From Haplodiscus bocki (Eukaryota): DNA of 64,000 nt. Location: assembly GCA_965655095.1 (NCBI GenBank), contig OZ296648.1, forward strand, positions 12,834,001-12,898,000, given 5' to 3'. How positions within the stretch are numbered: position 1 is the first letter of the stretch; every line of letters starts with the position of its first letter. Positions 1 to 57,078 of this stretch are shown piece by piece. The notes beneath the pieces are model-generated. The model saw nothing but the letters and a program-made list of their open reading frames with translations, made no database searches and was not told where the DNA came from. The position numbers and the translations under genes were made by a program.

Positions 1-10
1 AGAAAGAACG

Positions 11-1570
11 ATGGATATTATTAGAAGATTCGATATTAAAAATGGAGTAGAACTAACAGAAGTTTATTTAAAAAGTGATGTTTTATTACTTACATGTGTC
101 TTTGAGAAATTTATTAAAATATCTGTTGAAGAATATAAAATCAATCCTCTTTATTTTGTAAGTCTACCTGGTTATACTTGGCAGTGTGGATTAAAATATA
201 CAGGAATAAACTTACAAACACTTCAAGATAAAGATATGATTTTGTTATTAGAGAATAATATCAGAGGAGGCATCTCATCTGTTATGGGGGATAGATATGT
301 CAAATCAGATCATAATAAAAAGATAATATATATAGATGCTAATAATTTGTATGGTCATTCTATGAGTGAGCCTTTACCTTACGATGAAATTAGATTTGAT
401 AATGATGTTAAGTTAGAAGATATATTAAATACTCCTGATGATTCAGATATAGGATATTTCATTGAAGTTGATTTAAAATATCCAGATAATATAAAACAGA
501 AAACAAAAAATCTTCCATTTGCTCCTGTGATTAAAAAAGTTAATCCTGATAATTTTAGTGATTATATGAAAGAAATTAAACCTGATACATATATTCAAAC
601 TAGTAAATTGATATGTGATTGGTCTAATAAGAAGAATTATTTGGTACATTATAGGATGTTGAAATTTTATATTAGACATGGTATGATAGTTGATAAAGAT
701 CATACTGTTATATCATTTAAACAGAGTGGATGGTTAGAGAAATATATTAGTTTTAATACACAAAAACGTAATAAAGCTGTAAATGATTTTGAAAAAGACT
801 TCTACAAATTACTAAATAACGCTTTTTATGGTAAAACAATGGAAAATGTTAGAAATCGTTTGAAAATAAAATTTATTAAAAAAGATGATCAAAGAGAAAT
901 AATAAAACAACAATCTAAATTGACTTTTAATGGAATTCATAAATCTTACGAAAATTGTGATAGTTATACATTCAAGCAAAATGAAGTTCTTATGGATAAG
1001 CCGATATACTTAGGATTTTCCGTATTAGAACTATCAAAATTACTTATGTATGAGACATATTATGATATATTACAACCATATTTTGGACAAGATAATATAA
1101 AATTACATTACATGGACTGTGACAGTTTTGTATTGAGTATTGAAACACAAAATATAAATAAAGACTTGAAAAATCTTGAAGATATATTTGATTTCAGTAA
1201 CTTAGATAAAAATCATGAACTTTTCAGTAATAAAAATAAAAAAGTTGTTGGTAAATTTAAAATAGAAACTCCCGAAAATATATGGATTGATGAGTTCGTT
1301 GCCTTAAGAAGTAAATGTTATGCATTTAAGTGTGGTAATGATAGTAAAAATAAATTGAAAGGTATATCTAAAAGTCAATCAAAAAATATTAAATTTGAGG
1401 AATATAAAATCTGTTTAGATGGAGAAGAATTAGAAAATGAATGTGTAAATTATATTTTAAAATCAATTAATCATGATATGTATATGCAAGGAATTAAAAA
1501 GACGACTTTGAATATTTTCGATGATAAGAGATGTTATATAAATAATATTGAAAGCAACCCATGGAATTAG
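11..1570 (+). CDS. Protein-primed family B DNA polymerase (pPolB), C-terminal part; frame is open to the window edge so the 5' part lies upstream
   Basis: 519 aa with no stops. ExoIII YLKSD, region NIRGG, motif A YIDANNLYG, motif B KLLNNAFYGK, motif C YMDCDS, GKFKIE and KCY/KLKG, ending in FDDKR, as is typical of Polinton/adintovirus pPolB. Confidence 0.93.
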   Translation: MDIIRRFDIKNGVELTEVYLKSDVLLLTCVFEKFIKISVEEYKINPLYFVSLPGYTWQCGLKYTGINLQTLQDKDMILLLENNIRGGISSVMGDRYVKSDHNKKIIYIDANNLYGHSMSEPLPYDEIRFDNDVKLEDILNTPDDSDIGYFIEVDLKYPDNIKQKTKNLPFAPVIKKVNPDNFSDYMKEIKPDTYIQTSKLICDWSNKKNYLVHYRMLKFYIRHGMIVDKDHTVISFKQSGWLEKYISFNTQKRNKAVNDFEKDFYKLLNNAFYGKTMENVRNRLKIKFIKKDDQREIIKQQSKLTFNGIHKSYENCDSYTFKQNEVLMDKPIYLGFSVLELSKLLMYETYYDILQPYFGQDNIKLHYMDCDSFVLSIETQNINKDLKNLEDIFDFSNLDKNHELFSNKNKKVVGKFKIETPENIWIDEFVALRSKCYAFKCGNDSKNKLKGISKSQSKNIKFEEYKICLDGEELENECVNYILKSINHDMYMQGIKKTTLNIFDDKRCYINNIESNPWN

Positions 1571-1619: not shown

Positions 1620-2009
1620 ATGAAGCTTATAACATTAAACAAATGCTTAAGCGGATTGGATACTATTATAAATCATGATTATAAGGAAGAGAATAATAAT
1701 ATTAGACCAATTTTAAATAATGTTAGAAAATATATTATAGAATTTGTAGAAGAACATGATAAAAAATATGATAAACGATCGTTTATAGTTTTATTACAAT
1801 TTATAAATTATTTAATACAAGAATCCTTTGTACCAACATTTAGATTTCTTCATCAGATTTTAGGATTAAGATTTCTAATTATAAAATTTGAAGAAAATAA
1901 TCTGCAAATTAATGATGATTATATTGATTTTGATGAAGAAAATGGTTCCTTTTTAAATAAATACTTAAAATCTGAACTTTGTGATGAATATGCAGATGGT
2001 GATGAATAA
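1620..2009 (+). CDS. Hypothetical 129-aa Polinton protein with acidic C-terminus
   Basis: Intact ORF in very AT-rich DNA, co-oriented 49 bp after polB, with its ATG in a TATATATAAATG context. No recognisable domain. Confidence 0.65.
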   Translation: MKLITLNKCLSGLDTIINHDYKEENNNIRPILNNVRKYIIEFVEEHDKKYDKRSFIVLLQFINYLIQESFVPTFRFLHQILGLRFLIIKFEENNLQINDDYIDFDEENGSFLNKYLKSELCDEYADGDE

Positions 2010-2056
2010 TTTCAATTTTATTTCTAATTCAACATAATTGTATACTTTCACGACGT

Positions 2057-2374
2057 AGTAGTATATAAAAAAGCATTTGACATCAGTCGCAAAGGATCTC
2101 ATCCTCGTCCGACACCATCCCCTTCCCCAAAATCACAAAAATACAAATCCTAGGGTGTAAATATTTTTTATTGTATACATTCAATTATTTGAATATTATT
2201 ATTTATATTTGTTCTTTTATTTGAGTAGTTTTATTTTTTTTATTCTTTTAATTATTAGTTATTATATAATTATACACCCTAGGATTTGTATTTTTGTGAT
2301 TTTGGGGAAGGGGATGGTGTCGGACGAGGATGCGTCGTGCGCGCCTGGTGTCAAATGCTTTTTTATATACTACT
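2057..2374. repeat. Terminal foldback: ~102-bp inverted arms (2057-2159 and 2273-2374) around an AT-rich spacer, each arm ending in the Polinton terminal motif
   Basis: The left arm AGTAGTATATAAAAAAGCATTTGACA...CCTAGGGTGTA matches the reverse complement of the right arm, except for one 17-18 nt divergent block. Confidence 0.95.
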
Positions 2375-2534
2375 GGTAACGGCGTTCAACCGGAACGCTA
2401 ACGGCGTTAACGGCGTTCCCTTGTCGGTATAAAGGCGTTAACGGCGTTTTGCTAGTAAGTTGGTGGCGTTAGCGGCGTTTACGCCACTATACCGGAAAAA
2501 TAGCGGCGTTTTCCCAAAAAAGTTCGACCCGGGT
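2375..2534. repeat. Cluster of (A)ACGGCGTT-type motifs; probable MITE/DNA-transposon subterminal region truncated by the Polinton insertion
   Basis: About eight GGCGTT-core copies in 160 bp directly after ACTACT. Confidence 0.5.
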
Positions 2535-5500: not shown

Positions 5501-6101
5501 ATTCAGAGCACCTCTTGTTTTGAAAGGATAGTTTCGTATAGCACATGATTCAACCATTTTGAGAACTTTTACTTATCGGGATGGTTTTGTTGACCTGAAA
5601 AACCTGATTGACACTGGGTCTGCGCCTTAGATTATGTGAAGTTCAGAATGAGAGAAATTTGTATGAACCGAAATGCAACTAAAAAACAACTTTGCGCCCT
5701 AGTTAGTATAGGGGAAAATTATTGTCGCGTATGCTCCCTCCAATTCACTACGTTTTGATACTGCTTGACTTCAATTGGAGAGATCTCTGATTGTTGTATA
5801 CGATTTGCTTGAAGATTTTATGATCCGACGACTTTTGGTTGGCTTGAAGCTCTTCGCTGCTCTTTGAAAACAGCATCTAAAGGGACTTCGGCTCAGATGG
5901 CTTGATCAGTAGTTCTTTCAAAAAATGTCTTTTTTTCATTCTCGAAACTGACATGCCTCATTGTAATTCTCTTTCTTCAAGATCTGATTTTCTCGAAAGC
6001 GATCCGTTGCAGCACAACCATGCAGTACTCATTAGAAAATTTGCGATGAGAAGAACTTGTGGTTGGAAACTTTGGGAATAGAATCTCTGCAAACTGTCGT
6101 C

Positions 6102-6596: not shown

Positions 6597-8410
6597 TTTC
6601 CCTAAAACTACGTCTATGTGCTATATGTATGAAATCAACTATAGTGATTAAGATCCTATCGCATATTCTGTAGCCAAACAACTCATAAAGGTGTAAATGC
6701 CACTATGTCTGATTACTTCCCTCTCCCTCCAAAACGAAAGCAACTATTTAGTACATTAAACGAAAGGTAGTATGTAAAATCAAGTATCGCTAAGCATTTT
6801 ACAAATTAGCAGCTACGTAACATCTAAACCAAAAGTGCAGAAATTACATGATAACACAGGCAACACAGACCTGACGGAATCTAAATTCTGAATGAAACTC
6901 AAAGGTGAAATTACAAAATAAGAGCCTCGAACACTCCGGTAAGTTTCGGCGGGAAACCTGAATTAATTACATGTGCCCTCTGTAATGCAGCAAATTTATT
7001 AAACAGACTTTTATTGAGCTAAATCTACTCCACATGGGAAAACGTAAGTCACGAAGTCTTCACTCAGAAATCCATTTTGCAGTAGACAAACACAAAACTT
7101 CTCAATCAAAAAGAAATAACTAGAGCTCTAAGAATAGAATAAACACGAGCAGAATGGGTCTGGGAGAGAAAAAGGATTTACATCGTCTTCCATCCGTCCA
7201 ATATAGAAAATGGTAGACATTGACTCAAAACCCAGTCCGCCGACAGAAGCCTATAAATACAAGGTACATGAGTATACACTAGATAGAACATATCGGTTTC
7301 GGTCGGAGGAGCAGCCTGCACCAGACCTCAGACGTTTCTGGATGTCTCGGACTTCACATTCGACCATAATTACCCTACAACGTGAAGTATAGTTGGATAC
7401 ATGTAATCAGACAGTTTCCGTTGTCTGAAAACCAAAACTGATGTATCAGCCCTGAGACACTTTCCCACGACCCAGATGGACACTAGCCACATAAGTAGTA
7501 GACTAGCAACGAACTAGTTGATAGATTAGAAGAATAGACATTTTCCGATGTCTGATAAAAATTAGCCACCTTGCAGACTCAACGCACGGACATTTTTCAA
7601 CTTAAATCGGAAAATGCCCCAAACATCGATCCACGAATATTGTAACCCAAACACCATTCAGATATATCTTATTTAGCCTTTATTTCGATAACTCACAACG
7701 TATTGATGCCATTTTTATTTTAATTTGTGCTAAAATTTGCAAAAAATTCGTGCATTTGTCGCTCTAGCGGCAAATAGGCGCGTCAGTTACAGTTTATATT
7801 TTTTAGCACGTAGGCCAACGAGCCAATAACAGTTCACCGATGGTAAGAATTGCGTCTTGCCATCGATCAAGTGACAACATAAATCCAACCACAGATTACG
7901 AAGGGCAAACCACAGTGATGTCATTAACAAGGGAAACCACGTTGTTACCAGAGGAACTAGAAAACCCACGTACTGTACAGAAGTAACTCAAAAAATCTGG
8001 AGATAACAAGCCCTTCCAATAAGAGCGCGTGCTAACTTGAGTAGATTTGCACGCGAGATACTTTGAACAGAATTTCCGGGTTTTTGATCCTCAATTCAAC
8101 TAATACATCGCTTTCCATCTGTGTTCCAGTTTCCCTTTTGTAAACTTGAACGCACCATCAGTTTTTACTAAAGTAACGTGGCTGAAATCCAAATTTTTTT
8201 CTTTGCCAGTTTAAGGAGTTTTGCGTACACGTCTAAGAAATTGAGAAGAGAAAACATATACGATTCTAACGCACGCTAAGGAACGTCCACCCACGGAGAT
8301 TGAAGGAAGGAGCAGCTACACATACGAAGGAGCAGAATGACGAGGGCAGCGCACGAGTCTCCATCAAGAAGATTACGGCGAACATAGAACCGTTGCACGC
8401 CCAAATGTAA
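6597..8410 (+). mobile_element. Truncated solo LTR of the same family as the LTR at 9370-11493
   Basis: Colinear similarity from CTAAAACTAC (6602 vs 9375) to GAACCGTTGCACGCCCAAAT (~8388 vs ~11298). It lacks the last ~180 bp and the PBS. Confidence 0.8.
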
Positions 8411-9369
8411 AGCTGTGCAATGAAATGTTGAGTATGTCATTTTCGAGAAGAAATTATCACATATTAGCTTACCGCGCAAGCTCAAGGTGGAACTAGTCAG
8501 GAACTAAAAAAGTTCGTAGTCTTTTCCTCATTTCTATCAGTTCGTTCCTCGTTTCAGCTAATCCGTTCTGGAACGGTTCCATGCTCACTTGTAGCGCGGC
8601 TAATAGCAGTGCTGCTGTAGGTGTTAAAAAGGGTGAATAAAGCTGCTCCGTAATCGGACATTTTGGTACAGCGTAGTAGCATAGAGAGTAAAGTAAACTT
8701 TGTTTTGATGTCACCAGATTCGCAGAAACGGAACACATGCTGATCAATTTTTCACTCTTACAGTCAATTTCGCTTAGCTATCGTTGCTATTGATAGTTTT
8801 TTTAACGGCGTTACTCTAAATGAATTACTGCACATAGCTCCAGTTCAATTTAAAAAAGTGGGTTCGTTTTACACGAATACACGAACAAATATGAATGCAG
8901 CAATGTAAATTGTAATGAGCTGCCAGGGAAGACCTTTTTTTCAGTAAAAGTTCCTTCCGAACCCCGATCAGTTCGCTAGATTGATCGGTTTCTGATACGG
9001 ATCACCTTGCATGCAATTCAACAACAAATGGAAATAGTTGATTTTTTTTCCAAAGATACGTGTAAAATTTCAGTTTTTTAAGTCAAGGGAAGTTTTTTTT
9101 TGCAGGCAGTGTTTGTGCGCAGGTTTCGCAAATTAGTTGCGCGAGAATCCAAATGTCACCAAAATTCTGAAAACATGTGCAATTTCCATTACTAGCTTTT
9201 AAGAGTTAATTTCTTAAAAGTGTGTCCCAACTATGAACTGTTTTTAATGATTTAATGTTAACGGTGAAACTGACAATATCAACAAAACCAATGAAAAAAA
9301 TTTTGAGATGGATATAATATAGTTTATTCTGTTATTTCAACGCTGTGAAACGATTCACAACAGACACAT

Positions 9370-11493
9370 TGTTTCTAAAACTACTTCACAGTGCTATATG
9401 TATGAAGCCAACTAAAGTGATTAAGATCCTAACGCAACTTCTGTAGCCAAACAACTCATAAAATTATAGATGCCACTATGTCTGATTACTTCCCTCTACC
9501 TCCGATATGAAAGCGACTATTTAGTACATTAAACGATATGTAGTATGTAAATCCAAATATCGCTGAACATTTTACAGTTTAGCAGTTACGTAACATCAAA
9601 ACTAAAAGTGCAGAAATTACCTGTTGACACAAGCAGCACAGACCTGACTGGCTCTAAATTCTGAAAGAAGCTCAAAGATGAAAATACCAAATAAAAGCCT
9701 CAAAGACACCGGTAAATTTCGGCCGGAAACCTGCAAATATAACATGTGACATCTGTAATGCAGTAAATTCGTTCAACAGACTTTTTTGAGCTGAATCTAC
9801 GTCACATGGGAAAACATCCGTCATAAGGTTTTCATTCCAAAATCTACTCTGCAATTAGCAAAAACAATGCTTCACAATCAGAGACAAGTAGCAAAAGCTG
9901 TAACTGTAGGAAAACACAAGCAGAATGGATTTAGGAGATAATAATGATTTACAACGTTTCCCATCTTTCCAACATGGGAAATGAAGGATGTTGACTCAGC
10001 AGTCAGTCTGTTGACAGAAACCGATATAGAGAACACAGAAGAGCAACATTAGCATACACTAGACAAAACACAACGTTTCCCATCTTTCCAACTTGGGAAA
10101 TGAAGGATGTTGACTCAGCAGTCAGTCTGTTGACAGAAACCGATATAGAGAACACAGAAGAGCAACATTAGCATACACTAGACAAAACACAACGTTTTCC
10201 GTCAGAGGAGTAGCCTGCGCCGGGCTTTAGTCGTCTGCCGATGTCCGAGAGTTCATACTTGAACCATATTTACTCTACAACGTGAAGTACAGTTGAATAC
10301 ATGTAATCAGACAGTTTCCGTTCTCTGAAAAACAAAACTGATGTATCAGACCTGAGACAAATTCCCACGACCCAGATGGACAGTAACAACATACTTACTA
10401 CACTAGCAACGAACTAGCTGATACCTTAGAGGAATAGACATTTTCCGATGTCTGATATAAATCAACCGTCTTGCAGACTCAATGCACGGACATTTCTCAA
10501 CGTATATCGAAAAACGCCCCAAACATCGACCCAGGAATCTTGTAACCAAAACTCTATTCAAATATTTATTATTTAGCCATAATTTTGGGTTTTCACAACG
10601 TATTGATGTCATTTTTATTTTATTTTGTGCAAAAAATTTGCAAAAAATTCATGCTTTTGTCGCTATAGCGGCAGATAGGCGCGTCAGTCACTGTTTATGT
10701 TTTTAGCACGTAGGCCAAAAAGCCAATAACAGCTCACCGCTGGTAAGATTTGCGTCTTGCCATCGGTCAGGTGAGGTTGTAAATCCGCCCGCGAAGAACA
10801 AACCACAGTGATGTCGTTAACAACTTAGACCACGTTGTTACCGGAGGAACTAGAAAACTCAAGTACTGAACAGAAGTAACTATATAAATCTGGAAACAAC
10901 AAGTACTGCCAACGATAACTAGTGCCAACTTGAGTAGAATCTCGCGCAAAATATCATGACCAGAAATTCCGAACTTGTCGATCATCACTCAGCTAATACA
11001 TCGGTGTCCATCCGTGCTCAACTTTGATCTTTGTAAATTTGAATGAACCACCAACTTCACTGGAATAAATCGGCTCAAATCTTAAACTATCTCTTCGCCC
11101 GTTTCATGAGTTTGCCCTACACGTCGTCTAAAACATTGAGAGGTGGGAACACATACGATTTGAACGCACGCTTAGAAATGTTCGCCCACGGAGAAGACGC
11201 GATGGAAGGAGATGCTACAGATACGAATGAGCAAACTGATGAGGGTAGTGCAAGAGTCTCTACCGATATATTTGAGGAGCAAATTTAGGTGATTTTGGAA
11301 CCGTTGCACGCCCAAATTTCTGCCCTGACGGATTTGATTGATCGTTTGATCCAAGATAACTCGGTCAGAGAATCTACGATGGCAAGTGCCCGTAAACGAC
11401 CACCACGACCCGAAGTGCTCTTTGTTGAAGCATCGGGAACCCCTAGATTCGCACTTGCAGTACCGTTGACAGCCGCGGGATACTCGGCCGACA
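9370..11493 (+). repeat. 5' LTR of G1 (~2.1 kb, TGT...ACA)
   Basis: Starts TGTTTC where similarity to the solo copy begins, and ends CCGACA immediately before the PBS. Confidence 0.65.
9951..10197 (+). repeat. 119-bp direct tandem duplication inside the LTR
   Basis: ACAACGTTTCCCATC...AGACAAAAC starts at 9951 and 10070 with one visible mismatch. Only one unit is present in the solo LTR. Confidence 0.95.
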
Positions 11494-13199: not shown

Positions 13200-16100
13200 A
13201 ATTAAGAACCAGTTAATGTCTAACTTGATCCCACATTACAGTTAGATGAAAAACATAGGATGTCGTACGCAACCCTACACTTTAAAAACTACAAACACGA
13301 CGCACTACTGGACAACGGAGCAGTCCAGAGTGCCATTTCCGGAAACGAACTCAGGAAAAAACCAATAGCAAGCCCAGCTGCTTTTTTGAAAGAACTCCCC
13401 GCCCCTGAATTTTAGATTGAAAGGGCAAACGGAAATTTAGTAACAGTAGAGTATCAAGTAATCCGAACGTTCTTCATAGCAATCCGCTTATTTGAAAAAA
13501 TTTTGTTTTTTGCCAACCATGGGAACACTTTTAAAAGGAATGTCATTTTTCGATGAACACGCTGTAACACTTGACGCCAAAAACGATTTAGTTCATATGC
13601 CTGACATAACCATGCAAGCACGGAAAAAAATCAAACAACAAGTATTTGAAAAGAACTACTGACGACACAAAAGACAGTGATACAACTGTTCAAACAACTG
13701 ATTGTACCCGTCCCAGGTGTGGCTACCAACGCTCCTAAGAACGGCGCCGTGGAATCAACACCTGCATTTCATTGGAAAAAAGAACTCCTGGTTTCGACGA
13801 CACTAATCACCTTGACAGAAGTTAAAACAATAATACCAGTAGCAAAACCTCACAACCATACCTACCCACTTGACAGTTTTGTAGCAGTTGCCAATTTCAA
13901 GGTGATGAACCCAAGTCAGGCACGGAACACGAAACCAGTGCCACACGCGCAAGTGCTACTAATGAACAACCATCCAGAGGAGTGTGAACACAACCTCAAC
14001 CAAATATTACACGAACATACGGAAAAGGACGTGCAACACTAGTACCCAACGCCAGAGACGTGCGATGATCCAACAAAACTGAACAATGTCGACGGACCCA
14101 TCTATAATGAGATCATCACGCTCCGAGGCAAAGAACAGCTGAACTCAACAAAATCCAATGCACAGAGAAGAGATTTTTTGTCAAAGTTCAAACGGAAAGA
14201 GTCATTACTCAGTGAGAACCGCCAGAGTGGAGCACTTTTTAGGAAAGTATCCTTCAGTTTTTGCTAGGCATCGCTTAAACATTGGCATTAACACGAAGCT
14301 TGAGGTTACGTTTACAACATGGCAGGATAAACCGGTTTACTTACGAAGTCTTCCAACCCCGAAAATTTTGAAGGACGATTTGTTGGTTGAACTTGCATTG
14401 ATGGAAAAAGACAGGATTCTAAGCAGTCTTCCTTTCAGCAAGTTTTCGTCGCCGATTTTTGGTCAACGCAAACCGAAGGCTAAACTAAGGATTCAGCTTG
14501 AACCACATCGAATTAACCTTCGGATAAAACACGAATACGGAGAACATAACCACTGGGTAACAAACATTCTGGACGCAGCGCAACACATAGCCGGCATGAA
14601 GTTTTTCTGTAAACTAGACTGTTCTCAAGCGTACCACTGCATACAGATGGCAAATGAGCAGTCAGTACAGTTGCTCTCCTTTAATTTTGGTTCAAGAAAT
14701 TTGGCATACAAACGTTTAGCTCAAGAATTGAATACGTCTTTGTCAGCGTTTACTACTGCTATTAAGGAATACTTGGAGTCTGTATTAAAAGCAGACCGAC
14801 GCGCGAAGTACGTAGATGACACTCGTGTTGCTGCCCACACCGCAACAAATCTCACCGAAATCCTTGACCACGTGCTTCAACAAATTAACAGAGCAAGGTT
14901 AAAAAGGTTTGCAGGATTTGTAGACATTTACAGACAGTGTACAGTCCTAAACTTCCAGACAATTCAGTTCCATTAAACTTAGTGTTAGGAAAAGTTATTT
15001 GTTTTGGACTGAGGGAACAACATAGTGACACGATTTTTGAAATTAACGAATGTCTTTTGAAAGAATCTAATTTCTCACTCAAGTTGCCCCTGCTGGAGAA
15101 ACAAAAAGTAATCCTGCGTGATGCAAACAAACATGCCTCTTATGTCCTTTTCATTGGAAATTACACAGACGAAGGAACAGGAGGACCCAGCAAGTTCGCC
15201 CTGGTAGCCTTTAGTTCGAAACGGTTCTCCACAGGGCAAATGCCGTTAACAATGTTAGCGAAAGAGTTTTTTGCCATGCATCCAGCTTTTGTTCATTGTG
15301 GACACATGTGGCGGGGAACCAGAAAACCTATCATAGTAATGACCGACAACGAAGCGTTAACTATGTTTTTTTCGGCCAAACACGTTCCCCGTCGCTTGGG
15401 CCATTTTGTGATTGAATAATACAATAAAAGTTTGTGTTTCAAGTAGAGATTGACATCACCTCAAAGACACCTGAGCAAGAGGAAGACGAGATGAACTACT
15501 ACTTTCACGACGAGGTTGATGAAAACATTCCAAAACATCGGTCGAGCACACTGGACGACGAACCATCAGGCCGCGAAAAGCAGGAGCACCCTGCACCGAC
15601 AGAATGACAGAAAACGATGTCCACCAAATGACCACGTACAATGACGATGGACATTCAACAACATCGGTTGATGGCCAAATCATTTTTGTCAGATTGTTAC
15701 ACTCCATTTGATTGTCACCCCGAGCATTGAAGAGCTTTAGTGCATCTAATTCAGTTGATTTACAAGACATACAAGACCACTTTGGGAACTTAAAAAAACA
15801 AAAGCAATCCCTTCAGAACCCATAGCGCCGCTGACACATGTAAACTTCGAAAGCCGGTTTTTCAACGCTCGATAAGAACAAGAAAAAAACGATTAGAAGT
15901 TATCAAAAGTATTTTCTGCCGAAAGTGTTTTGACGACACGGGTAAAGTCTTTTACCAACAAGCAGAAGTGTCAGAAGAATGTATGGAAGATAAGACCCGG
16001 GCAATGCATGAACACACCATGCAGGGACACTGGGGGTCAAGAAAGATGCTTTACAGCCTTAACAACGCTACTACTGTCCTAGCTTAGCTGAAAAGTTCCA

Positions 16101-22900: not shown

Positions 22901-25900
22901 GGAGCGCCATTTCATGGCTCTTGAGCAGTTCTCCAACGCTGCCATGACTCTGTTGCGGGATGTGGTGATAGGCTTGGGTGAGCTCAGGTCCAGACGTCTG
23001 GCCGGCAGCATGATGTTGTACCCTTTGATGCCTCCGAAGATGCAGGAGGGTAGCTTTTATCGGCTCATGCCAGAAGTGTTCCACTGTAGATCATCCCTGG
23101 TGGATCACGGGTTCCTTTCCAAGTTTGAGTCTCAGAAGCTGCGTGAGCAGTATAGCCTGTTGGCAATATCTTGCAGAACCGGCGGCGAGCTGGAAACAAG
23201 CTTGAAGTTGTGAAAAATTTGGTGTGACTGTGGTTAGGCATCGACAAGTGGAACAAGTTCCCCAAAGAGGAACAAGTTTCCCAAAGAGAGGCCTACGGTG
23301 TAAATGCTTTAGTTGACTGTGGGCAAGAGCAGCTTTACACACGCTTTCAGTGACCTGATAGCTAAGGTGTCGGACCTGAACGATAACACAGCCGTTTCAC
23401 AGTGCTTGTGCGACTCGTTTTCTGTTGAGAGTTGGTCATGTTGTGCGGGAACGTCTTTTGTTGTGGTGAGGGTGCGTCAGGAATCACTGTCTCAACACGA
23501 GGGTGGTTGATTCCGAGTCCAGTACCGACGTGGTTGCGGTCGTGTGTGGAAAACTCTGGGTCACTCCAGGAAAACTATGTTAGCGAGTGGTTAGGTCAAG
23601 CGTCTCCTGTGCGAGCGTCTGTGCTGGACACCTAACTTTTGGCGCTGCTGGTGAGTCTTAGTCTGAAGAAGAATAAAAAGCGAGCAAACACGCAAACGTG
23701 AAAGAGGTCGGAGTTACTCCCTCGAAAACAAAAAAAACACGTCAGAAGGCACAGTTCTGTCTCAATTGTTGGTGGTGGGGCTGTCAAGTGATGTTTAGAT
23801 TGGGTTCCATTGAGGATTAAGGCAGACTTAGACGTTGACATGCTTACTGTAGATAAAAATACTCACACATCACTGAAGCTTAAGTGACTTGATTGGACGT
23901 AGACAGCTGTTGGTGTTCTTTTGTAAATAACATTTTAATTTCCGATATTTAGCAGGAGTTGCTTGTAATAAGACAGAAGTGAATCAAGACATGAGGTTAA
24001 AAAAAAGAAAAAGCCGGAAAATTTTTTAAAAACCGGGAAAAAGTAGTTGACTAAAATGATAAAAATGACAACGGGAGAAGGAACATGAGTGAAGAAGTTG
24101 GCTCACAAGTTGGGTAATCTGAACTTTTTCACCATTTCTTTTTTGTTTTCACTTGAGATTAAGTCAATTTGTAAGCAAATTTAGGAGTATTTCAATGGAA
24201 ATGGGATTATTTACGAGACAGAGGGGAGCTTCAGGTTAGGAACAACAGCAGGTGAAAAGAAAGATGACATTTGAAAATGAAGGTGAGTCGTGACATGCAG
24301 CATCGGAGGTTACAGGGGGGAAAGAAGTTAGTTCCTACAGGAATGTAAGGTGAATCGTAGTAGACCTCAGTTTAAACTTTGCATATGGTTCATCTAGTAA
24401 AATTATTGCTTTTTGAGGACACATGTGTTAGTTACATATGACATAGTTCTTGTTGGAATCATGCACAGTTATGAAAAATTTGTGAACATAGTATAAAGGT
24501 GAGACGCTGACAATGATGATGTAGCGTCGATTTTGACAGCTGAGTCTGTGAAATATCAGTGGGTGAGCTTTGGGACCAAACGTTTTGAGGGAGGCGTTCA
24601 AAAATATATCGTTTAAAAAACGTTTTTGTGTGTTATGCTCGCAGAAACTGAATTTTGAGTAAAGTGAGGTAATACGAGAGTGCTAATTACGTTATGCTAG
24701 TTAAGTGGTGTGTTTGTACAAGGTACCGGAAGAAGCGATTGAGCTGTGTGGTATCGGAGCTGAAGGGTAGTGTTCAACGTGCGTACATTGTCGTAGAGTC
24801 AAAAAAATTAATTTTGCAGTGTTAGAACTGTCGATAATTGTAACTATTTTAGGCCTACGCAGGGACCTATTATATAGGATGTCCTGCTTTGGAGTCTTTA
24901 AAAAAATATGTTGTTGAAGTGATCATCCAATCACTGTGGCTGAATTGACGGTCGGTATACTGAGAGGCCCACTGTATGAATTCGAGCTAAGGAGAAAGTA
25001 TTGTGCGATAGCTGATTTTCTGCTCAACTGCAGCAACAAGTAGTGCTGACAGGTATTTGAAGCTGGGTTTTCTTGCAGTTTCCAGCTAGTTTTGCGACTT
25101 TGAGGAGAAGGTGCCGCATCGAGAGTGTTATCAGTGACAGTGACCTAAAGTCTGTTGTGCGGGATAGCCGCATCAGTTGTTGAGATGGTGTNNNNNNNNN
25201 NNNNNNNNNNNNNNNNNNNNNNNNNNNNNNNNNNNNNNNNNNNNNNNNNNNNNNNNNNNNNNNNNNNNNNNNNNNNNNNNNNNNNNNNNNNNNNNNNNNN
25301 NNNNNNNNNNNNNNNNNNNNNNNNNNNNNNNNNNNNNNNNNNNNNNNNNNNNNNNNNNNNNNNNNNNNNNNNNNNNNNNNNNNNNNNNNNNNNNNNNNNN
25401 NNNNNNNNNNNNNNNNNNNNNNNNNNNNNNNNNNNNNNNNNNNNNNNNNNNNNNNNNNNNNNNNNNNNNNNNNNNNNNNNNNNNNNNNNNNNNNNNNNNN
25501 NNNNNNNNNNNNNNNNNNNNNAGTGGGTGTTTCCTGTTACCAAGCATCCATGTTGTGAGATGTTGAAACTGGTGCATCTTGTTTGTAAGTTGTTGGTACT
25601 TCACGTAATTGTGTGACCTCGAGTGTGATAGATTGTCTCGTGTCGGTTTTGAATATTTGGGGAGGCCGTTGTGTGACTTCAGATTGCAGTGTATCTAGCT
25701 TCGTGGCCTCCTTGTTGGAGTCATCAGTGTCCATGACCACTTGGTTACTTTCTTCGATCTCTGATGGTGAGGAGTGGTGCGTTTCATCTGGAGGATAATA
25801 TGGGCGATATATTGTTGGGGGTATGTAGGCGTCAATAATCTCGTGATACTCGGTGACATGTGGATCAGGGTTGTGTGTCATGTGCCGTTATGTCAGCGCT

Positions 25901-43709: not shown

Positions 43710-45011
43710 TTTGTGGCACTTTCTGCGAGCCTTTGAGGGAAAGTCTCAGTAGTTGGCGATGTCCTGTCGTCCCACGAACAAAAAACTAGTCCTAATACCT
43801 CACTCGATGGAAACTCCGTAGAATCCGATCGTAACGCTTACCTTGATTTGCGACAAACTTATTTGGGTTTGAAAATGAATTTCGCCAGGGTTTGTGGTCA
43901 TAAATTTTGCTAAACCGAAAAAGAAAACCATAAGACAGAATCAAAAGAGATTGCAGAAGCAGGAGAAACAAAACAGGAGGTAGAAAACGCAACAATTCTT
44001 CCGATTATTCAAGTTATATAAGTTTTGCATTCATTTTTTCTTTTGTTGAGGTGTACATCAACATAAAGCAATTATACAACTCTAATGGGTTGGACTCGCA
44101 CAAATGCTAAGTTTCCAACATTTTCGATGGAACCGTTACCGAAAGAAAGGAGTTTCGACTGCGAAGAATATGACTATGAAGAATATCCTGATGAGATTTT
44201 TAAAGCACCCTTGTCTGAACATTTTTCAATAAGGAAAATGAGAATACTTGGTGGACCCGATGGATTCATGTTGAACGGTAAATTGGGGGTTGAATTTTTT
44301 CCTTTTTCAAAAGGCCAAATATAATCAAAAAACAAGCTACGACAAATCAGAGCCAGAGTTAATTTCCATATTCATTAGCGGCAACCACGACGTTGGTTTT
44401 GCAATTGCTTGCCTAACACTCGTCGCTTTGACCTCAAGAATGACTATCACAAGAGAAGAATGGACATGCCTGCATACACCCGCGAGGAATACAATTTCAT
44501 GGAGACTTTGGAAAAGACCTTTAACATCACTGCCAGACAAAACCAGTTTATTCAAGAAAACAATTTCAACAAAGCTCCAATTCGTCGCATTGCCATTGCA
44601 AGGAATACAAACTCTGCAACTATTGTATCATACATTGAAAAACCACTCTGATATCAGCAGTTTGATCCAAGACAAAAAGTAATACCCTAAGATGGACAGC
44701 ATATTCTACAAATTGAACCTGTTTAAAAATGTCGCCTATATGTTACGCCAATGAATACAATGAACTTTCTAGATGATATCCGCTCAATTTTGATTGGTAA
44801 ATTCGAAGATATGTATATACTCTTGTCTGACCAAACCTCAATGCAAAATGCTACGGAAAATTGTCATGAACTGGAACCAGTTTGAAAGCTTTCGAGAATG
44901 GAGCTAAATTTTACTTAAATTCTAAACCGCGCTACTGAAATCCTTGTTTTGGGGTAACAAATGTCTTCGGTTGCAGTTGTCAAGTTCTTTGTTGTTCGAA
45001 AAAAAATCTAG
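43710..45011 (+). pseudogene. Major capsid protein (double jelly-roll, Polinton PY/hexon-like)
   Basis: VEVYINIKQLYNSNG, CEEYDYEEYP, GKLGVEFF, TFNITARQNQFIQENNFNKAPIRRIAIARNTN and ELNFT...VLG..MSSVAV. Confidence 0.82.
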
Positions 45012-45012
45012 A

Positions 45013-45399
45013 ATGGACAACGTTGCTCTTCAGCAATTAATCAAACGTGTTTGTTTCTCAAACATCGGTACATTCAATGCTTTCAAATTATGTTCCAACT
45101 CTACCCGATGAGGCATTTGCCAAAATAAACACGCAACTCATGAGTTTGCAAGGTGAATATTGGATATTAAATGCAAAATCTTGTCGAGACTTGTTTTTTG
45201 AAAACTCTCTTGTAGCTGATAGGTACAGTTTCCTCAGGCAGCTCTACAAAAAGATATTACCGAAACGACTACAGTCCAATCCCAGCTTTTGCGGTTTCTG
45301 CACAATATATGCAGATGTTCATCTCTTCTAGTTCCGGCTACAAAAATTAGTGCAGTTCACGATGTTATCGTACATTCATTAATAAATGCCTATATGTAA
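45013..45399 (+). pseudogene. Adenain-like cysteine protease
   Basis: INTQ...QGEYW (catalytic His of GEHW lost), LFFENSL (FxDSL-like) and LQSNPSFCG. Confidence 0.85.
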
Positions 45400-45554
45400 G
45401 TATTCGCCCTTTTCAAAGTAAATACGCCGGTTATACAAGATCTCTGTTACTGTTGTCTTTTTTATTTTAACTTGCTCAAACTTTAAAATATTCTTCAGAT
45501 GTAGAGTTGCATGAAAGCAAGGACCCGTAGCAAACTATGCAGCCCCTATAATAT

Positions 45555-46049
45555 CGAAAAATTAGGTCAAAACAGTATCGGCAGGCGTAATAAGTCAACG
45601 GAGACGTAATAAAAAACCACAGGCGGAAAAAAACCGCTGACGTAACAATTACTTCGGGAGGGATCCTGGAAACAAGTTCAAAATTCTCTGCTTTTCAAAA
45701 AAGTCTCACAGCTCCAAAAGTGAGGCTTTAAGCCCATTCCCATTCCTAATACTTTACCAAAACCTTTAACTTATACCACCACACTACCGATTACTAATCA
45801 TTTACATGATGCTTTGCCAAACACTCTCGCTTTTTCCCAAAACCGAGAACTTGTAGGCAGCCAATCAAGCGTGAAAAATCCTCAAAATTTGCTAGCCAAA
45901 CAAAATTGACTTGTAATTAGCCGAAAAACATTGGAGAGCTCCAGGCTACAGTGATGCAACTTTGTCGGCTCTCGGTTCAAGTCGGTTTGCTATAGCTTAA
46001 CTCATAATGTAAGGCCTCCAACCCCGCCTGGTCTTCTCACTCGTTTATT
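45555..46049. repeat. Right terminal inverted repeat of Polinton B
   Basis: Inverted homologue of 27960-28370. Confidence 0.85.
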
Positions 46050-49000
46050 CTTGGGTATGTTCTGTGTATAAAAAAATAAGAAAACTGATGTAACATTGCG
46101 GTGACTTGACTCAAGTGGGCGCTTTTAGATTTTTTGGAAACGAATCGATTTTATGTTCCATGGGGTTGATCAAAGGAGTGCAGATCGTGTTTGCCATAAA
46201 TTCAACTTCCTTTTGTCCGAACAATCATTTGTCAACTGGGAGCTTGGGGCTGCTCCATCAGTTCACTGAAAAATGATTTCTTTGATCTGTATCAGTTTCA
46301 GGGTACAGTGTGCTGCAATACTATTGTCGCCGACGTATTGAGCAAATTTGTCGGCTTTGACGATAAGGTCAATGTATTACGTGACGAAATTCAAAAAATT
46401 TGGAAAAGAAAAGTTTAAACCTTGAGCAAGACGTTTGTATGCAATGTCCTAAACCGAAGATGAATGACAGGAACTCGATTGATTGACCGTTTGCCATCTG
46501 AAGACCGCGATAAACCTTTGAGCAATACATCTCACAGAAGTATTTTTCCAGGCCAAATGCTGTGTTGCCTCAACATTGGTTGTTACCGGACGTTTATGTT
46601 CAATATACTCATGTTTAATGAAGTGGTTGTTGCGTCGTAAACCCAATAGCAGACAGAGTTCACCACTGTTGTTTCACTGGCCAAACATGGGGAAGAGTAT
46701 TTGCTGAATAGCTACGTAGCCTTTTAATCATATTTCTGCATTGAGTTTAGTTCGAGTAGTATTTGGTCTTTAAGGTTATTCGGCGTAGTCAATTTCTGTG
46801 CGTGCAAGGGATCGTTGAGTTGGATGATCAATTGAAAAGTAGTCTAACTTTAATCTAAAATGGCCAATGCTGGAGTGCCCACTAGCGCTTCTTTGCTGGT
46901 GATGGTTCATGTTATTTATGCTGTGAATCTCGTTGTGCCAATTTTGGCAAGGTACACACTGGAAACATGACTTTATGGTATGGTGGTAGGAAAACCCTCT
47001 GGGCGGTTCTTAGATTGCACAAGTCACAGCTGTATTTTGCGTTGGCCTTGCGGAGTTGGAGAGACACGTCTAGTGAAGTGTATCAGGTGGATACAGATGT
47101 CCAAGGTAACTGAGTACTGTTTGAGAATTGACATTCCGATAAGAATGTATTCCTTTTCATAGAACCCTGAAGGTTTCCTCAAAATAATGGCTTGGTATGA
47201 AAAACCATGAAAAGGCTTGTTTTGTGACTGGGACTATACTTCTCTCGGCTATTTGGACCTTAAAGTTCGATGCAGGCAATTGTTGTGTAAGAGCTGTAGA
47301 GTTGGTGACGGGAACACAACAAAGTTCCGTTTCACATATGGCGCTTTGGATGGCCGCGCTATTTAGTACTTCTTGAATTTCGTATTGTTCAAACTGTAGA
47401 ACTACATACAACATTCGGTCACGTCTCACGTCTCTTTAATTGAATAGTAGCAGTCAACAGCTTGACCTCAGATGGTTTATGTGTCTCTCGAAACGATGTT
47501 TTCCTTGTCTGTCTTTCAGTCGGTGGGATGCTTCAGGCCACTTTATCCTTTTGTGTTGCTGTTGCTCGACGCTCTTCTGCTCGTTCCTAGTTGCATTCTC
47601 AGTCGCCTTTTACTTCATTGGCGTTCTAAAAAATGACTCAATTGCTGTTGTTCCCGTCGTTTTTTGTACAGGAGCATAGTAAAAAAAGGTAATTGAGGCT
47701 CAATTCAAAGTATAGTGTTTCTTTGAAACTTTCTTGCCTTTAGAAAGCTGCCGACTTTCCAGGGGCTATTTGTTTTCGCTTTTTTTTCTATTTAATGTAG
47801 TCCGAACAATTGGACGGTTACCTGATTTATCTAAAACTTAAGGCTCACATTGTTTATTTTGCTTCGAATGGCGTGACGATTCTCATTTGAAGAATGGGAT
47901 TGAAACGATTCTTCTTCGGAATGGGAAGCGTTGCTGTGGGCTTTGAACTGTTGATTCATCTGGAACTGTCGTTTGTGTGCTTGCTTTTAACCTTTTCTAA
48001 AGCCGCGGTTTTCGTCTGAGTTCTGGCGTTGACACAACGATTTTACGATAAGCACTCGTTTTTGCTACATGCGGGGGCGAAGTGTCTAGTTTAGCCTCAA
48101 ATCTGGCCCAGCGGTACTGGATTTTAGCTTGGTGTAAATTGTGTTGGCTGGGCTTGTGGTCGTTGTTCATTGGACTCCATTTTTTGTGGGTCATTCTGGA
48201 CGAATTTCCACGTCTTTGTTCTGCATTCGACGGTTTTGTGGCTCATCTTGTTACAGTAGAAACTTGTGACAATGAATATGCGTTGCTGTTCGTTGTTATC
48301 TGGGGTGGGCCTGTCATTCTGACTTATGTCCGTTCCAGATTAAAACTCCTAAAAAAATTGTGGCAAATGTGTACCCATCAACTGTTGATACTCGTAATAT
48401 TGTTGAATAAAGTCTCTGTTTTCATCCAGCATCGCATTTTGTTTGCCTGCAACACTGAGGTATTTCTAGATGGCAACCGGTTGCTTGCCGAACAGGAAAG
48501 TTTTGACATTCTCGTTGTTTTTCGAGTAAAATGCCTGATTCGCTGTTCTCTTGAGGTGTTATAAGAACTCAGAAAGTGATTCATGGTGTGGGTAATAAGT
48601 TTGATGGTCCCATTAAACCCTTGATACTCCATTGAAATCATCTCGGATCTACTCTCAGCGAAACATCTAACGGACCTCAAGGAGAGTTGTGTCGGAAGTC
48701 ACCTTGATGGTTTGTCAGAGTTTGATTGCGTCTTCTCTGAGTAGGCTGGTGAAAAACTGGTGCTTCTAATGTACTTTGATCTTATTCTGAAAAAGTTGGA
48801 AAGTCGTATAACTTTCTGAAGGAGGCATTCCAACTCGTTGTGGCATTCTTTTGAACCTTTTAAAAACGGAACATCTGTCTGGATAAATGTACATTTTCGG
48901 TTTGCTGCTCCGTATCATGTTGGGGTTTTCATCAACTGCGTCATGTCGGGCTCATCTTCATTGTCCTTAGGCTGATCGTGGTCAGAGTTTGTGAGATTGT

Positions 49001-49600
49001 CCATTAAGGCAACCCAGGGAATCGGTTGCGTGTGTGCCGATTCTGTTTCGTTCCTGTCACCACGTCGCACGCAAGGCTAGCAGATGTGTTGCCTCATATA
49101 AAACTGGCAGCCTTGCCGTTTCTATTGGCTTCCAACTCGTTTTGATTTGCCAACAGAGCACAAAAATCCCCAACTCGTCGCAGGATCGGCTCAGTCGTCT
49201 GTTTCATTTGCTCGCTCCCTATGCAATGTGTAACCTCACTGGTGGAAAAAGAGATATCTTATGAGTCGATCTAGGGTTCTTGTTTATATCCTAACTCTAC
49301 GGTTTCTGTGGATCTGTCGTGCGTCTGAGTGCTGTTCTCTGTTTTTTAACTCGTTTACTAAAGAAAAGTAGTGCGAGCGTTAAGCTATTGAAGAGTTTGT
49401 GATAGTCAATTTGTATTTGTTAAGAGTGAAATATCTCAAAAGCAGTAGTTGGCTAAAATTCTGCTCCGTAGAGTGTCTAATTGACCTTGTGTTAACAGCA
49501 GAGTTGAACAAAGGTCTTTACGTTACAAATTATAGCTACTTTCGGGCAAGGTTAGCAGCGCAAGAAGGGTTGTGGCATATTTCTGGATGCAATTTAGTCA
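46050..49600 (-). mobile_element. 5' portion of Gypsy element G2 (LTR remnant, PBS, gag, protease, RT N-terminal half)
   Basis: PBS at 49052-49062; gag-like MDNLTNSD...; LNSAAIQSAI protease (47157-47429); QYVGD (~46335, YVDD-like); reading ends at ...QNIP at 46050. The LTR outer boundary is uncertain. Confidence 0.85.
49052..49062 (-). promoter_or_regulatory. Primer-binding site TGGTGACAGGA of G2
   Basis: Plus strand TCCTGTCACCA, identical to the G1 PBS. Confidence 0.8.
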
Positions 49601-50029
49601 CCTGACAATCAGAGTGATTCTTATTGTAGTTCAGTAGTTCATTATCACACCTTTTGTCCGCAATTCTAGCTAGCACCAATTATTTCTACATTTATCACGA
49701 TTCTAGTAGCGCACTTTCTCTAAGAGTTAGGCCATTTGGTTTTTACGGCAAAGGTGATGTTTTGATTGCTCCTCTAAAAGCATTGCAGAAGTCTTTCAAT
49801 GCTAGAAGCACTAGTTGGTGACGATGGTACATCATTACAGCTCAGTGTGATTGATCGTGTTTTCATAGCCGTGAATCTCTACATTTTTGATTTATTGCTG
49901 CCAATAGGCTTAGCGCACTCTAAAGCAATTCCCGCAGACGTTTTTTGAAATTGCACTAGAGTGAGAGCTACTACAGCTCACTCTGAGCTTTGCGCTTTTC
50001 TGGCGATGTCTAATGGACAATTGAAAGAG

Positions 50030-50032
<3 letters not shown>

Positions 50033-50070
<38 letters not shown>
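50033..50070 (+). repeat. (GA)n microsatellite
   Basis: Direct observation. Confidence 0.98.
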
Positions 50071-50072
<2 letters not shown>

Positions 50073-50359
50073 GCGATGCGGCTTACTCTCGATTATCAGT
50101 TCTAATGATGCTCAAATTTGCCTTTTTTTGAGTGAGGTGTATGTCTGCCCATTTGAATGATGACTTTTTTGAACTATAGTTCAAACTGTACCTTACAGTG
50201 AGGTGTGTGTTCGTTCACTTTAATCAAAAAATTTCAATAGTGGTTCTACTAATTGCATTGAAATGATGTGTATTAGGGTTCACTTCCGATTTATGAATTT
50301 TATTGGCTGATGCGGTTAAGAATCACTGTGATGATGCGAGTTAATGATGCCTATTTTTC

Positions 50360-51245
50360 ACATCATTAGCGACAACTCCAACGTTACTTCTGCGATCGAT
50401 CGCTTGACACTCATGTTTGTGCCCGCAAGAATGATTATCACCAGAAAAGAATGGACATGCTTGCATATACTCTCGGGGAGTACAACTACTTGGAAATTTT
50501 GGCAAAGACTTTTATCATCACTGCCAGACAAAACCAGTTCATTCACGAAAACAATTTCAACAAAGCTCCAATTCGTCGCATTGCCCTTGCAAAGAATACA
50601 AACTCTGCAACTATTGTATCATACATTGAAAAACCACTCTGATATCAGCAGTTTGATCCAAGACAAACAGTAATACCCTAAGATGGACAGCATATTCTAC
50701 AAATTGAACCTGTTTAAAAATGTCGCCTATATGTTACGCGAATGAAATCAATGAACTTTCTAGATGATATCCGCTCAATTTTGATTGGTAAATTCGAAGA
50801 TATGTATATACTCTTGTCTGACCTAACCTCAATGCAAAATGCTACGGAAAATTGTCATGAACTGGAACCAGTTTGAAAGCTTTCGAGAATGGAGCTAAAT
50901 TTTACTTAAATTCTAAACCGCGCTACTGAAATCCTTGTTTTGGGGTAACGAATGTCTTCGGTTGCAGTTGACAAGTTTTTTGTTGTTCGAAAGAATATCT
51001 AGAAAGTACAACGTTGCTCTTCAGCAATTAATCAAACGTGTTTGTTTCTCAAAAATTGGTAGATTGGCTCATTGCTTTCAAATTATGTTCCAACTCTTCC
51101 CGATGAGGCTTTTGACAAAGTAAACACGGAGCCCATCAGTTTAAATGGTGAATATTGGATAATAAATGCAAAATCTTGTCAAGACTTGTCTTTTGCAAAC
51201 TCTCTTGTAGCTGATAAGTACAGTTTCCTGAAGCAGCGCTACAAA
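50360..51245 (+). pseudogene. Isolated Polinton B-family fragment: MCP C-terminus plus protease N-terminus
   Basis: Colinear with 44370-45250, and near-identical to it over the central ~500 bp. Confidence 0.9.
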
Positions 51246-51621
51246 TGAATGCCTTGAAATGATGCGTTTTACGGCTCACTTCCGATTTTTGAATTTCTTT
51301 GGCTGATGCGGTAAAGTATCACTGTGATGATGCGTGGTTGATTTGATTCGCAATAAATGTTTTCAATTTCTGGGAACGTACGGGTCTGCAGAATGTGTTG
51401 CAACTCATTCTAAATTGTATAAACAATGAAGTGCAATCTAATTGCAGTGGAGTGAGGTGTTCTGTTGCTCACTTCCAAAAAATTTCCTAACTTATACAAT
51501 ATGGTGCGCAGCATGAATAGCGTGAAGTGATGTGTGTTGAGCATCTTTTTCCACGTGTTCACATATTACGTTACCGCGGTCATAGCAACGGAACAGGAAT
51601 TAATTGTACACATTGGCTTTA

Positions 51622-51826
51622 ATACTAACTATATAATTATAGTATGCATTTAGCTTATGTCCTATTATGAAGCCATTCCATCTAGGTAGCATCACCTAGT
51701 TCATACGAACATATATAGTGTTTATAATGCGGCGTATGTTCGTATGAACTAGGTGATGCTACCTAGATGTAAGGGCTTCATGATAGGACATAAGCTAAAT
51801 GCATACTATAATTATATAGTTAGTAT
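51622..51826. repeat. 205-bp near-perfect palindrome (~92-bp arms, 21-nt loop); MITE/foldback element or hairpin RNA
   Basis: ATACTAACTATATAATTATAG...CATACGAACATA / TATGTTCGTATG...CTATAATTATATAGTTAGTAT with few mismatches. Confidence 0.95.
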
Positions 51827-56142: not shown

Positions 56143-57078
56143 ATGAAAGGCAACGCGGCCCAGCAGGAAAGTCAACGATGGAAAAGAAAAAGGGAGCAAA
56201 CGTTTTTCATCTGCGAAAAAAGACTGAATGCAACCTGGAACCTCGAACGATGTAAAAATCAAGTGGACGGGAGGGGCACCATACAAGACGTCCTGAGTGC
56301 AATCCATGAACATAAGTGGGAAGTTGTTTTTTTATCAGAAATCTTGTTCAAGGATTCGGGCATCTGGTGGTATGCAAACTCTTCTGTCCTGATACATGGA
56401 AAACGAGGAGCAGTGATTCTCAGGAAACAATGGGCTATGGCTAAGAAAGAACAAGGAAGTAAGAAACGGTTCGACGAACGGTTTACCATGGTAACGTTCA
56501 AAGACACCAAGTTGATAGCAGTACACCTGCCGGTATCTCCCAATGACGGAGAAATTGAGGAGTACCGGAAGAATTTGGAAACAGCCTTGGCTTGTCGAAG
56601 GAAAAACAAAATAGTTTTGACCGGAGGAGACCACAATGCGCCCATCGGGTGCCAGAATATTATCAGGAAAACGGTGGGTGCTTTCGGGCTGGAACCTGAA
56701 ACATCGGCGAAAGGTGATATTGTTGCTTGTGCACAACAGAAAGACCTTCAAATAGTGGATACGTACGTTCAGAAGAACAATAGAAGCACATGGTGTCACC
56801 TAAAAGCTGGCATTTGGTACGAATTGGATTACTTCCTTGCAAAGCAGTGCCAGAGATTAGTGGTTAAAAACATAAAAGTAGTGCCGGACGATAAATGGTC
56901 ACACCAGAAACCCCAGGAAATCCAGGTGCTGTTTCGCCAAGCGAGGAAAAATAAGTACAGAGTGCCAAGAACTGAAAAAACTGATTGGAAGAAACTTCGC
57001 TCTGAAGCATTTCAAAACGAGTACAGGCAACGCATCGCGAAGACACAACGGTTAGACAACGGGTCGTGGGAAAGCTAG
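56143..57078 (+). pseudogene. Apurinic/apyrimidinic-type endonuclease domain of the LINE ORF
   Basis: ATWN, VVFLSEI, VLTGGDHNAPIG, STWCH, YELDYFL and SHQKP (SDH-like). Confidence 0.9.

Follow-up and report, generated by a model that had tools for sequence, protein, structure and literature searches.

The terminal region and its features

The window (the whole 64-kb stretch of DNA analysed here) opens in a low-GC region (23–25%) that ends near position 2374, and the features of this region and its immediate flank are as follows.

2..1570, plus strand: family B DNA polymerase gene of Polinton type, of which the window has the 3' part (522 aa), truncated by the window start and stop-free
1620..2009, plus strand: ORF2, 129 aa, family-specific, with no known domain; the last gene before the end
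2007..2056, minus strand: conserved A/T segment of ~50 nt that adjoins the inner AGTAGT on the element side; the terminal repeat probably has its inner boundary at the left edge of this segment
2008..2023, minus strand: 16-mer pointing into the element, identical to positions 5832–5847 of a distant locus, L022; 0/300 shuffles gave a common word so long
2057..2159, plus strand: inner arm, an inverted copy of the element end, 103 nt, begins AGTAGT, common to relatives on other contigs (outer 26 bp 2057–2082, block 2083–2099, inner 60 bp 2100–2159)
2160..2272, no strand: spacer, the loop of the fold-back, 113 nt with 11 G+C (10% GC)
2273..2374, plus strand: terminal arm, the putative right end of the element, 102 nt, finishes ACTACT, with the (AGT)2//(ACT)2 motif (inner 60 bp 2273–2332, block 2333–2348, outer 26 bp 2349–2374)
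2375..2512, no strand: flank outside the element, 10-nt tandem-like repeats, ~50% GC; a right TSD would occupy its first 6 nt

Relatives of the polymerase are numerous, with 3,590 at E<=0.001 among 7,998 scored candidates, and identity is 74–87% among the 120 matches listed, all from ENA contigs. Three close relatives (P0016, P0018, and P0027) have Pfam matches to DNA_pol_B_2 and/or Endonuclease_7, and P0016, 84% identical to the window polymerase, matches DNA_pol_B_2 at E 1e-9; the window fragment alone has no significant Pfam match and no sequence match in the PDB. ORF2 has 158 relatives, 24 of which besides itself are 90–98% identical, and matches nothing in Pfam or the Atlas. Neither the cassette delimited by the two end motifs (2057–2374) nor the polymerase has a match in the phage collection, and there are no matches (0) to the 26-nt end motif in GTDB genomes. 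The ACTACT that finishes at 2374 belongs to (AGT)2//(ACT)2, which is described as the commonest Maverick end motif (PMC8097293). Together, the relatives of the polymerase and ORF2, the Pfam matches among those relatives, and the end motif suggest that the element is a young member of a large Polinton family and that its right end is at 2374. The window starts within PolB, which places the integrase gene and the left end of the element, together with the partner TSD, outside it. The flank at 2375–2512 is possibly the end of another element that received the Polinton insertion.

Elsewhere in the window there is an inverted repeat at 51622–51826 (92-bp arms, 97% complementary, 21-nt spacer) that is MITE-like and unrelated to the Polinton end. 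LINE remnants are the probable source of a reverse transcriptase fragment (14158–14976; RVT_1, E 9e-8) and of a weak match to endonuclease/exonuclease/phosphatase at 56143–57078. Local duplications that are ~2.8–2.9 kb and 6 kb apart and 71–90% identical lie at 6602–11317 and 44372–51334, and there is a 330-N gap at 25192–25521.

Direct inspection of the sequence places the AGTAGT start of the cassette at 2057 and its ACTACT end at 2374, so that the two inverted ends 318 bp apart described in an earlier note on this DNA, and the arms assigned to them, are accurate to one or two bases. The arms are 100% identical over the outer 26 bp, as had been claimed, and over an inner 60 bp rather than the ~59 bp given there. 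The block separating these identical parts does diverge, but it measures 17 nt in the inner arm and 16 nt in the terminal arm instead of 17–18 nt; 10/17 aligned columns are identical, with 6 mismatches and 1 gap, and the two versions are diverged homologues rather than unrelated sequence. The A/T spacer has the proposed length of ~113 bp. Compared with its own reverse complement, the cassette is identical at 252/323 columns. We also note a 14-nt direct repeat with one mismatch (2037–2050 and 2170–2183) that brackets the inner arm and is reached in 1/300 shuffles, and a 7-nt segment just inside the inner motif (2049–2055) that is the inverted complement of 2333–2339 in the terminal block. Both are possible template-switch scars or sites of alternative pairing.

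Folded as single-stranded DNA, the segment 2040–2390 has a predicted energy of -112 kcal/mol (z -24), and 0/100 shuffles are as stable. In the predicted fold the stem closes on the terminal base, with the 3' terminal base paired with 2057 and the body of the element forming a 5' single-strand tail, and the spacer alone folds weakly (-4.3 kcal/mol). Self-priming hairpin ends of the parvovirus, poxvirus, or Halocafeteria type have either a recessed 3'-OH primer or a closed hairpin. The 3' end folded as predicted here could in principle prime its own extension or act as a protein-primed origin.

With inverted ends around a short non-coding spacer the cassette resembles a MITE, and its two complete end motifs in the correct orientation are what a separately mobile, non-autonomous mini-element of 318 bp would carry. 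However, it has no TSD of its own, in that no duplication of 4–8 bp flanks the cassette, in agreement with the earlier reading of the flanks; blastn finds no second copy within the window, in which the next ACTACT after 2374 is at 9380. For these reasons, and for others given below, we consider such a mini-element highly unlikely.

Recurrence of the inner end in other copies

Gene-caller by-products of 30–97 aa served as probes of the DNA of other copies. A search with the minus-strand frame 1968–2132, which spans the junction between the inner arm and the element and so favours junction-bearing copies, identified seven clusters with 18 member sequences on other contigs, whose listed lengths all differ from the 451,048 of the window contig; in all seven the outer arm and this junction are present. 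These matches are at the amino acid level, with peptides that cover only the inner arm and its flank and are compatible with, though no proof of, an intact AGTAGT, and a single host assembly may be the source of all the relatives; two contig sizes (83,800 and 373,756) are common to the junction clusters and the polymerase relatives. An eighth relative, P0177, is the only one of 120 ORF2 relatives examined in which the stop codon is lost. Its ORF2 is 75% identical to that of the window, and its tail matches the window frame 2006–2068 at 16/20 residues (E 4e-13), beginning at 2006, spanning the Ser-Ser encoded by the inner AGTAGT, and reaching the same stop. A changed seventh base of the inner arm is implied both by five of the seven clusters, in which H replaces the first Y, and by P0177, which has V in another frame. 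All eight relatives have one and the same inner neighbour at the junction, an outcome that the search favours. The six nucleotides before the inner AGTAGT were considered as a captured host flank, and this is ruled out by conservation of the junction in the relatives.

These observations bear directly on whether the structure is peculiar to the window, either as an assembly artefact or as a rearrangement at this one locus. The case does rest on assembly sequence without raw reads, but eight diverged clusters from other contigs have the junction, and the arms are not identical across the block, as those of a fold-back read artefact would be. For the inner arm such an origin is largely refuted, and overall we find it barely credible. 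The inner arm is thus not unique to this locus, whereas uniqueness would have undone the earlier interpretation.

Conservation extends inward beyond the cassette and then stops abruptly. The minimum numbers of nucleotide differences in seven relatives are 0–4 over the 14 codons inside the motif and 0–1 over the next two, and beyond ~2007 they are 15–18 over 13 codons in the four peptides that reach further. The inner neighbours beyond ~2007 differ among copies, and the edge is sharp. The fixed unit is ~368 bp (2007–2374), not 318 bp, and the earlier description has to be extended inward by ~50 nt. Because conservation stops at ~2007, the P0177 match starts there, and the sequence beyond varies, the edge resembles the inner edge of a TIR, which would be ~368 bp long. 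Continuation of the conserved unit for 50 nt past the cassette is a further point against a mobile mini-element, as is the shared inner neighbour of every relative seen, although the latter is a weak test that depends on chance gene calls of 30–97 aa. No inner-type arm with a different neighbour was seen among the same chance gene calls, and the suggestion that the 318 bp can be cut out as an element of its own finds no support; the judgement that it is not an independently inserted MITE is borne out by the absent TSD and by a junction fixed in every relative seen.

The diverged block had been proposed to distinguish the true end from the internal one. In five of the seven clusters the block at the inner position is of the inner type, with no changes required over six codons. 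P0397, however, has a terminal-type block and register at the inner position (7 versus 16 minimum changes over 11 codons), and P0396 is intermediate (11 versus 16 changes, and 3 versus 4 for the block alone). With a terminal-type block in P0397, and partly so in P0396, that proposal is weakened, and the block is thus probably no fixed label of the inner versus the true end. The pattern could be accounted for by exchange between the arms, by inversion of the cassette, or by differences among subfamilies.

One possible account of this conservation requires no function: a template switch or a nested mini-derivative would have doubled the end once, in the ancestor of the family, and the relic would then have been kept by descent and by conversion between the arms. 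The direct repeat bracketing the inner arm is template-switch-like, at a frequency of 1/300 in shuffles, and the inverted complementarity between 2049–2055 and 2333–2339 is scar-like. Against this, the inner arm and junction survive where ORF2 is only 75% identical and where the neighbouring DNA has changed. We regard a neutral relic as somewhat unlikely, although it is to be taken seriously, and the distant loci provide evidence on both sides of the question.

Distant loci with the same polymerase type

A scan of GTDB with the polymerase alignment identified 46 loci (L001–L046), most at 32–40% identity. They sit in bacterial and archaeal species-representative genomes, several within one MAG, and are likely to be eukaryote-derived contigs inside prokaryotic MAGs, through host or viral contamination of the bins. 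Polintons are also characterised by genes for a retroviral-like integrase, a capsid, an ATPase, and a protease; among these loci, L002 has an rve integrase and L017 a double jelly-roll protein. ORFs of the 46 loci give no matches of this PolB type beyond position 2400 of the window, apart from one weak match at 16.2–16.7 kb.

One of these loci has a fold-back of similar design. In L022, whose PolB is 36% identical to the window family, the AGTAGT at 5614 has as its partner an ACTACT whose last base is 5742, a span of 129 nt in which 21/24 outer bases of the arms are identical, the middle is imperfect, and the tip is paired (-33 kcal/mol; 0/200 shuffles as stable). Of the 198 AGTAGT motifs that were tested across the window and the loci, no more than two form pairs scoring above 17/24, one in the window (24/24) and one in L022 (21/24). 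The L022 fold-back is 150 nt upstream of an intact 1,248-aa polymerase, on a contig that has no integrase or far end, and 0/456 ORFs from other loci match upstream of it. The fold-back is thus 5' of PolB in L022 and 3' in the window, as expected of an end feature. Recurrence of the design in a distant element further counters the idea of a structure unique to one locus, and with its different arm sequence it also argues against the neutral relic.

The position of the L022 fold-back is relevant to a role at the RNA level, in which read-through transcripts of PolB and ORF2 form a long hairpin for 3'-end formation or for small RNAs. Hairpin-based 3'-end formation occurs in mimivirus and virophage mRNAs, and the inner arm starts 48 nt past the ORF2 stop. 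In L022, however, the fold-back lies upstream of PolB; in the window the stem finishes exactly on the DNA end motif, and Rfam gives a single match, to a generic long hairpin, that is far below the cut-off (78 versus 230 bits). We judge this role very unlikely.

The 16-mer at 2008–2023 recurs in L022 ~45 nt before the PolB start, and lies just inside both fold-backs; by its position and orientation it may be promoter-like. An 8-nt core of it was tried as a general promoter and ruled out (5 sense versus 3 antisense occurrences upstream of 266 ORFs), and it is present in 1/16 PolB upstream regions.

At four other putative ends (L002:90, L004:1088, L018:3656, and L028:4522), which were picked by eye and are TSD-unverified, and of which the L002 locus has a 100-N gap, only 11–14 of 24 bases match and the structure is absent. 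Absence from most distant putative ends (4/5) is what the neutral relic would predict, and it indicates that Polintons do not need a fold-back. An AGTAGT/ACTACT pair in L001 (5303/5510) was rejected, with 13–14 of 24 at background level, as were hairpins in L003, L005, and L017/L032 as doubled ends, none of which starts at an end motif. A quick tree of 54 rows, which left out the 20/46 loci that have no long stop-free PolB segment, has no starred clade joining L022 and the window family. Since L022 is not grouped with the window family in this tree, the trait appears to be patchy, and so either convergent or often lost.

Several other structures near polymerase genes or putative ends were seen in these loci. 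At L018 3589–3656 a 57-nt near-perfect palindrome ends 11 nt inside the putative ACTACT end and is similar to the short palindromes described at termini in the Halocafeteria preprint discussed below. A stretch of ~28 nt beginning AGTAGT occurs at 115 and 267 in L007 as a direct repeat 152 nt apart, near the contig end. The putative right end at L028 4460–4522 has a G-rich stretch that seems to resemble the inner 60-bp arm of the window, and the inner inverted end motif is absent there. Inverted repeats of 1.5–1.9 kb lie just downstream of the polymerase gene in L030 (9915–18916), L031 (11850–21607), and L043 (12627–21598), and are possibly foldback-type insertions.

A proposed local duplex origin and its alternatives

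The geometry of the cassette is a matter of direct observation, as is the recurrence of its inner arm and junction in other copies. We infer that the ~368-bp module is the TIR, and hence that it stands at both ends of the element; both ends would be expected, as a fold-back on one side only would occupy the 5' end with which the other strand has to form a panhandle. The explanation that we favour, tentatively and with a confidence a little short of even, is that the end is a self-complementary terminal repeat, fixed in the family, that allows a displaced strand to restore a duplex origin on the spot. Strand displacement during protein-primed synthesis from the far end would release a single strand whose 3' end (...ACTACT) would fold onto the inner AGTAGT ~300 nt away, rebuilding a duplex identical to the native end over 26 bp. 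From there the terminal protein and polymerase could begin synthesis, displacing the inner arm and continuing through the A/T loop and beyond, and an end-to-end panhandle across the whole genome would be avoided. The diverged block would keep the fold-back imperfect, and may occasionally be swapped between the arms.

The stability of the fold (z -24) and a stem that closes on the terminal base are consistent with a local origin, as are the junction in 7/7 clusters and in P0177, the sharp edge at ~2007, and the similar design of L022. Against it are the putative distant ends that have no such structure, the ability of conversion to homogenise inverted repeats without selection, and the bidnavirus pPolB, which is described as using a panhandle and no terminal hairpin (PMC4938981). 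As judged from sequence, the architecture is real and belongs to the family as a whole, one distant element has a counterpart of it, and its function is putative.

A different use of the same structure would be in excision or resolution. The chromosomal cassette would extrude as a cruciform, helped by its A/T centre, and the junction, exactly at the element-host boundary, would be the target of a host resolvase or of PolB's own Endonuclease-VII domain, with hairpin-capped ends in two orientations as the product; if cassettes are at both ends, they would also be direct repeats that recombine to leave a solo cassette. Coincidence of the stem base with the terminus, the identity of the cassette with its own reverse complement at 252/323 columns, and the Endonuclease_7 matches in close PolB relatives fit this role, as does the terminal-type block inside P0397 (7 versus 16 minimum differences over 11 codons), although the P0396 block is only intermediate. 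However, a 113-nt loop disfavours cruciform extrusion, and L002 has Endonuclease_7 and yet a putative end without the structure. Poxvirus hairpin ends are reported to arise by resolvase cutting and to need mismatches (PMC9415595, PMC8956199), but domains such as Endonuclease_7 have been read as intein-derived homing endonucleases (PMC11161782). On balance we think an excision signal unlikely.

Adenovirus replication includes a panhandle step in which a single strand rebuilds a duplex origin from the genome ends. The proposed local origin is similar, in that inverted copies of an end pair to give a duplex origin for a protein-primed polymerase, as also described for bidnavirus (PMC4938981), but the partners there are the two genome ends, whereas those in the window are ~300 nt apart within one end. 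Polinton and Maverick TIRs are reported at 46–1,447 bp (PMC8097293, PMC10748475), a range that includes the putative 368 bp seen here, and they share the (AGT)2//(ACT)2 motif and an adjacent pPolB-type gene; the window end differs in having a second full motif and 100 bp inverted inside the same end. The word 'hairpin' is absent from the available text of four papers (PMC8097293, PMC8502044, PMC11131425, and PMC12220804). The closest precedent is provided by the 52-nt palindromes reported beside the TSD of virophages and PLVs of Halocafeteria, most of them non-pPolB elements, which were found in a screen with a gap limit of 10 nt and are proposed to be 3'-OH hairpin primers (bioRxiv 10.64898/2026.07.28.741278). 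These are likewise self-complementary sequences within a TIR beside the TSD with a proposed role in replication. The window structure, in contrast, has 102-bp arms and a 113-nt loop, closes on the last base, and belongs to a pPolB element, and its fold would yield a duplex end rather than a primer-template.

Terminal single strands that fold on themselves and are used for terminal-protein priming are described for Streptomyces telomeres, although these have several short palindromes in ~150 nt, serve only for end patching, and use bacterial proteins (PMC8743542). Poxvirus flip/flop telomeres also have an imperfect terminal hairpin in which mismatches may matter, possibly with two orientations, but they are covalently closed and involve no protein priming (PMC8956199, PMC9415595). 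Full-text searches, which did not extend to the founding Polinton/Maverick papers or Repbase, turned up no account of a TIR of this kind, with its end motif doubled, in a Polinton, and we provisionally consider this form of Polinton terminus to be new.

A broader and more doubtful proposal, which we would give no more credence than the excision signal, is that several unrelated Polinton lineages use a doubled motif at each end as a three-way device, namely a local origin, a boundary cruciform, and a hidden direct repeat. The base of the cruciform would mark where element and host meet, so that a junction nuclease, which may be the polymerase's own Endonuclease-VII domain, could release the element precisely, and the hidden direct repeat would let the element loop out and leave solo cassettes. 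To our knowledge Polinton excision has never been shown experimentally, and such a device, if true, would provide a concrete route for it.

A terminus of this type also has practical consequences, as TIR finders can take it for a MITE or misplace the boundary of the element, and the large family of young copies makes its function computationally testable. Exit of Polintons from the chromosome and the copying of their second strand currently rest on a model of pairing between distant TIRs (bioRxiv 10.64898/2026.07.28.741278), and an end that pairs with itself throughout a family would offer these elements a different route.
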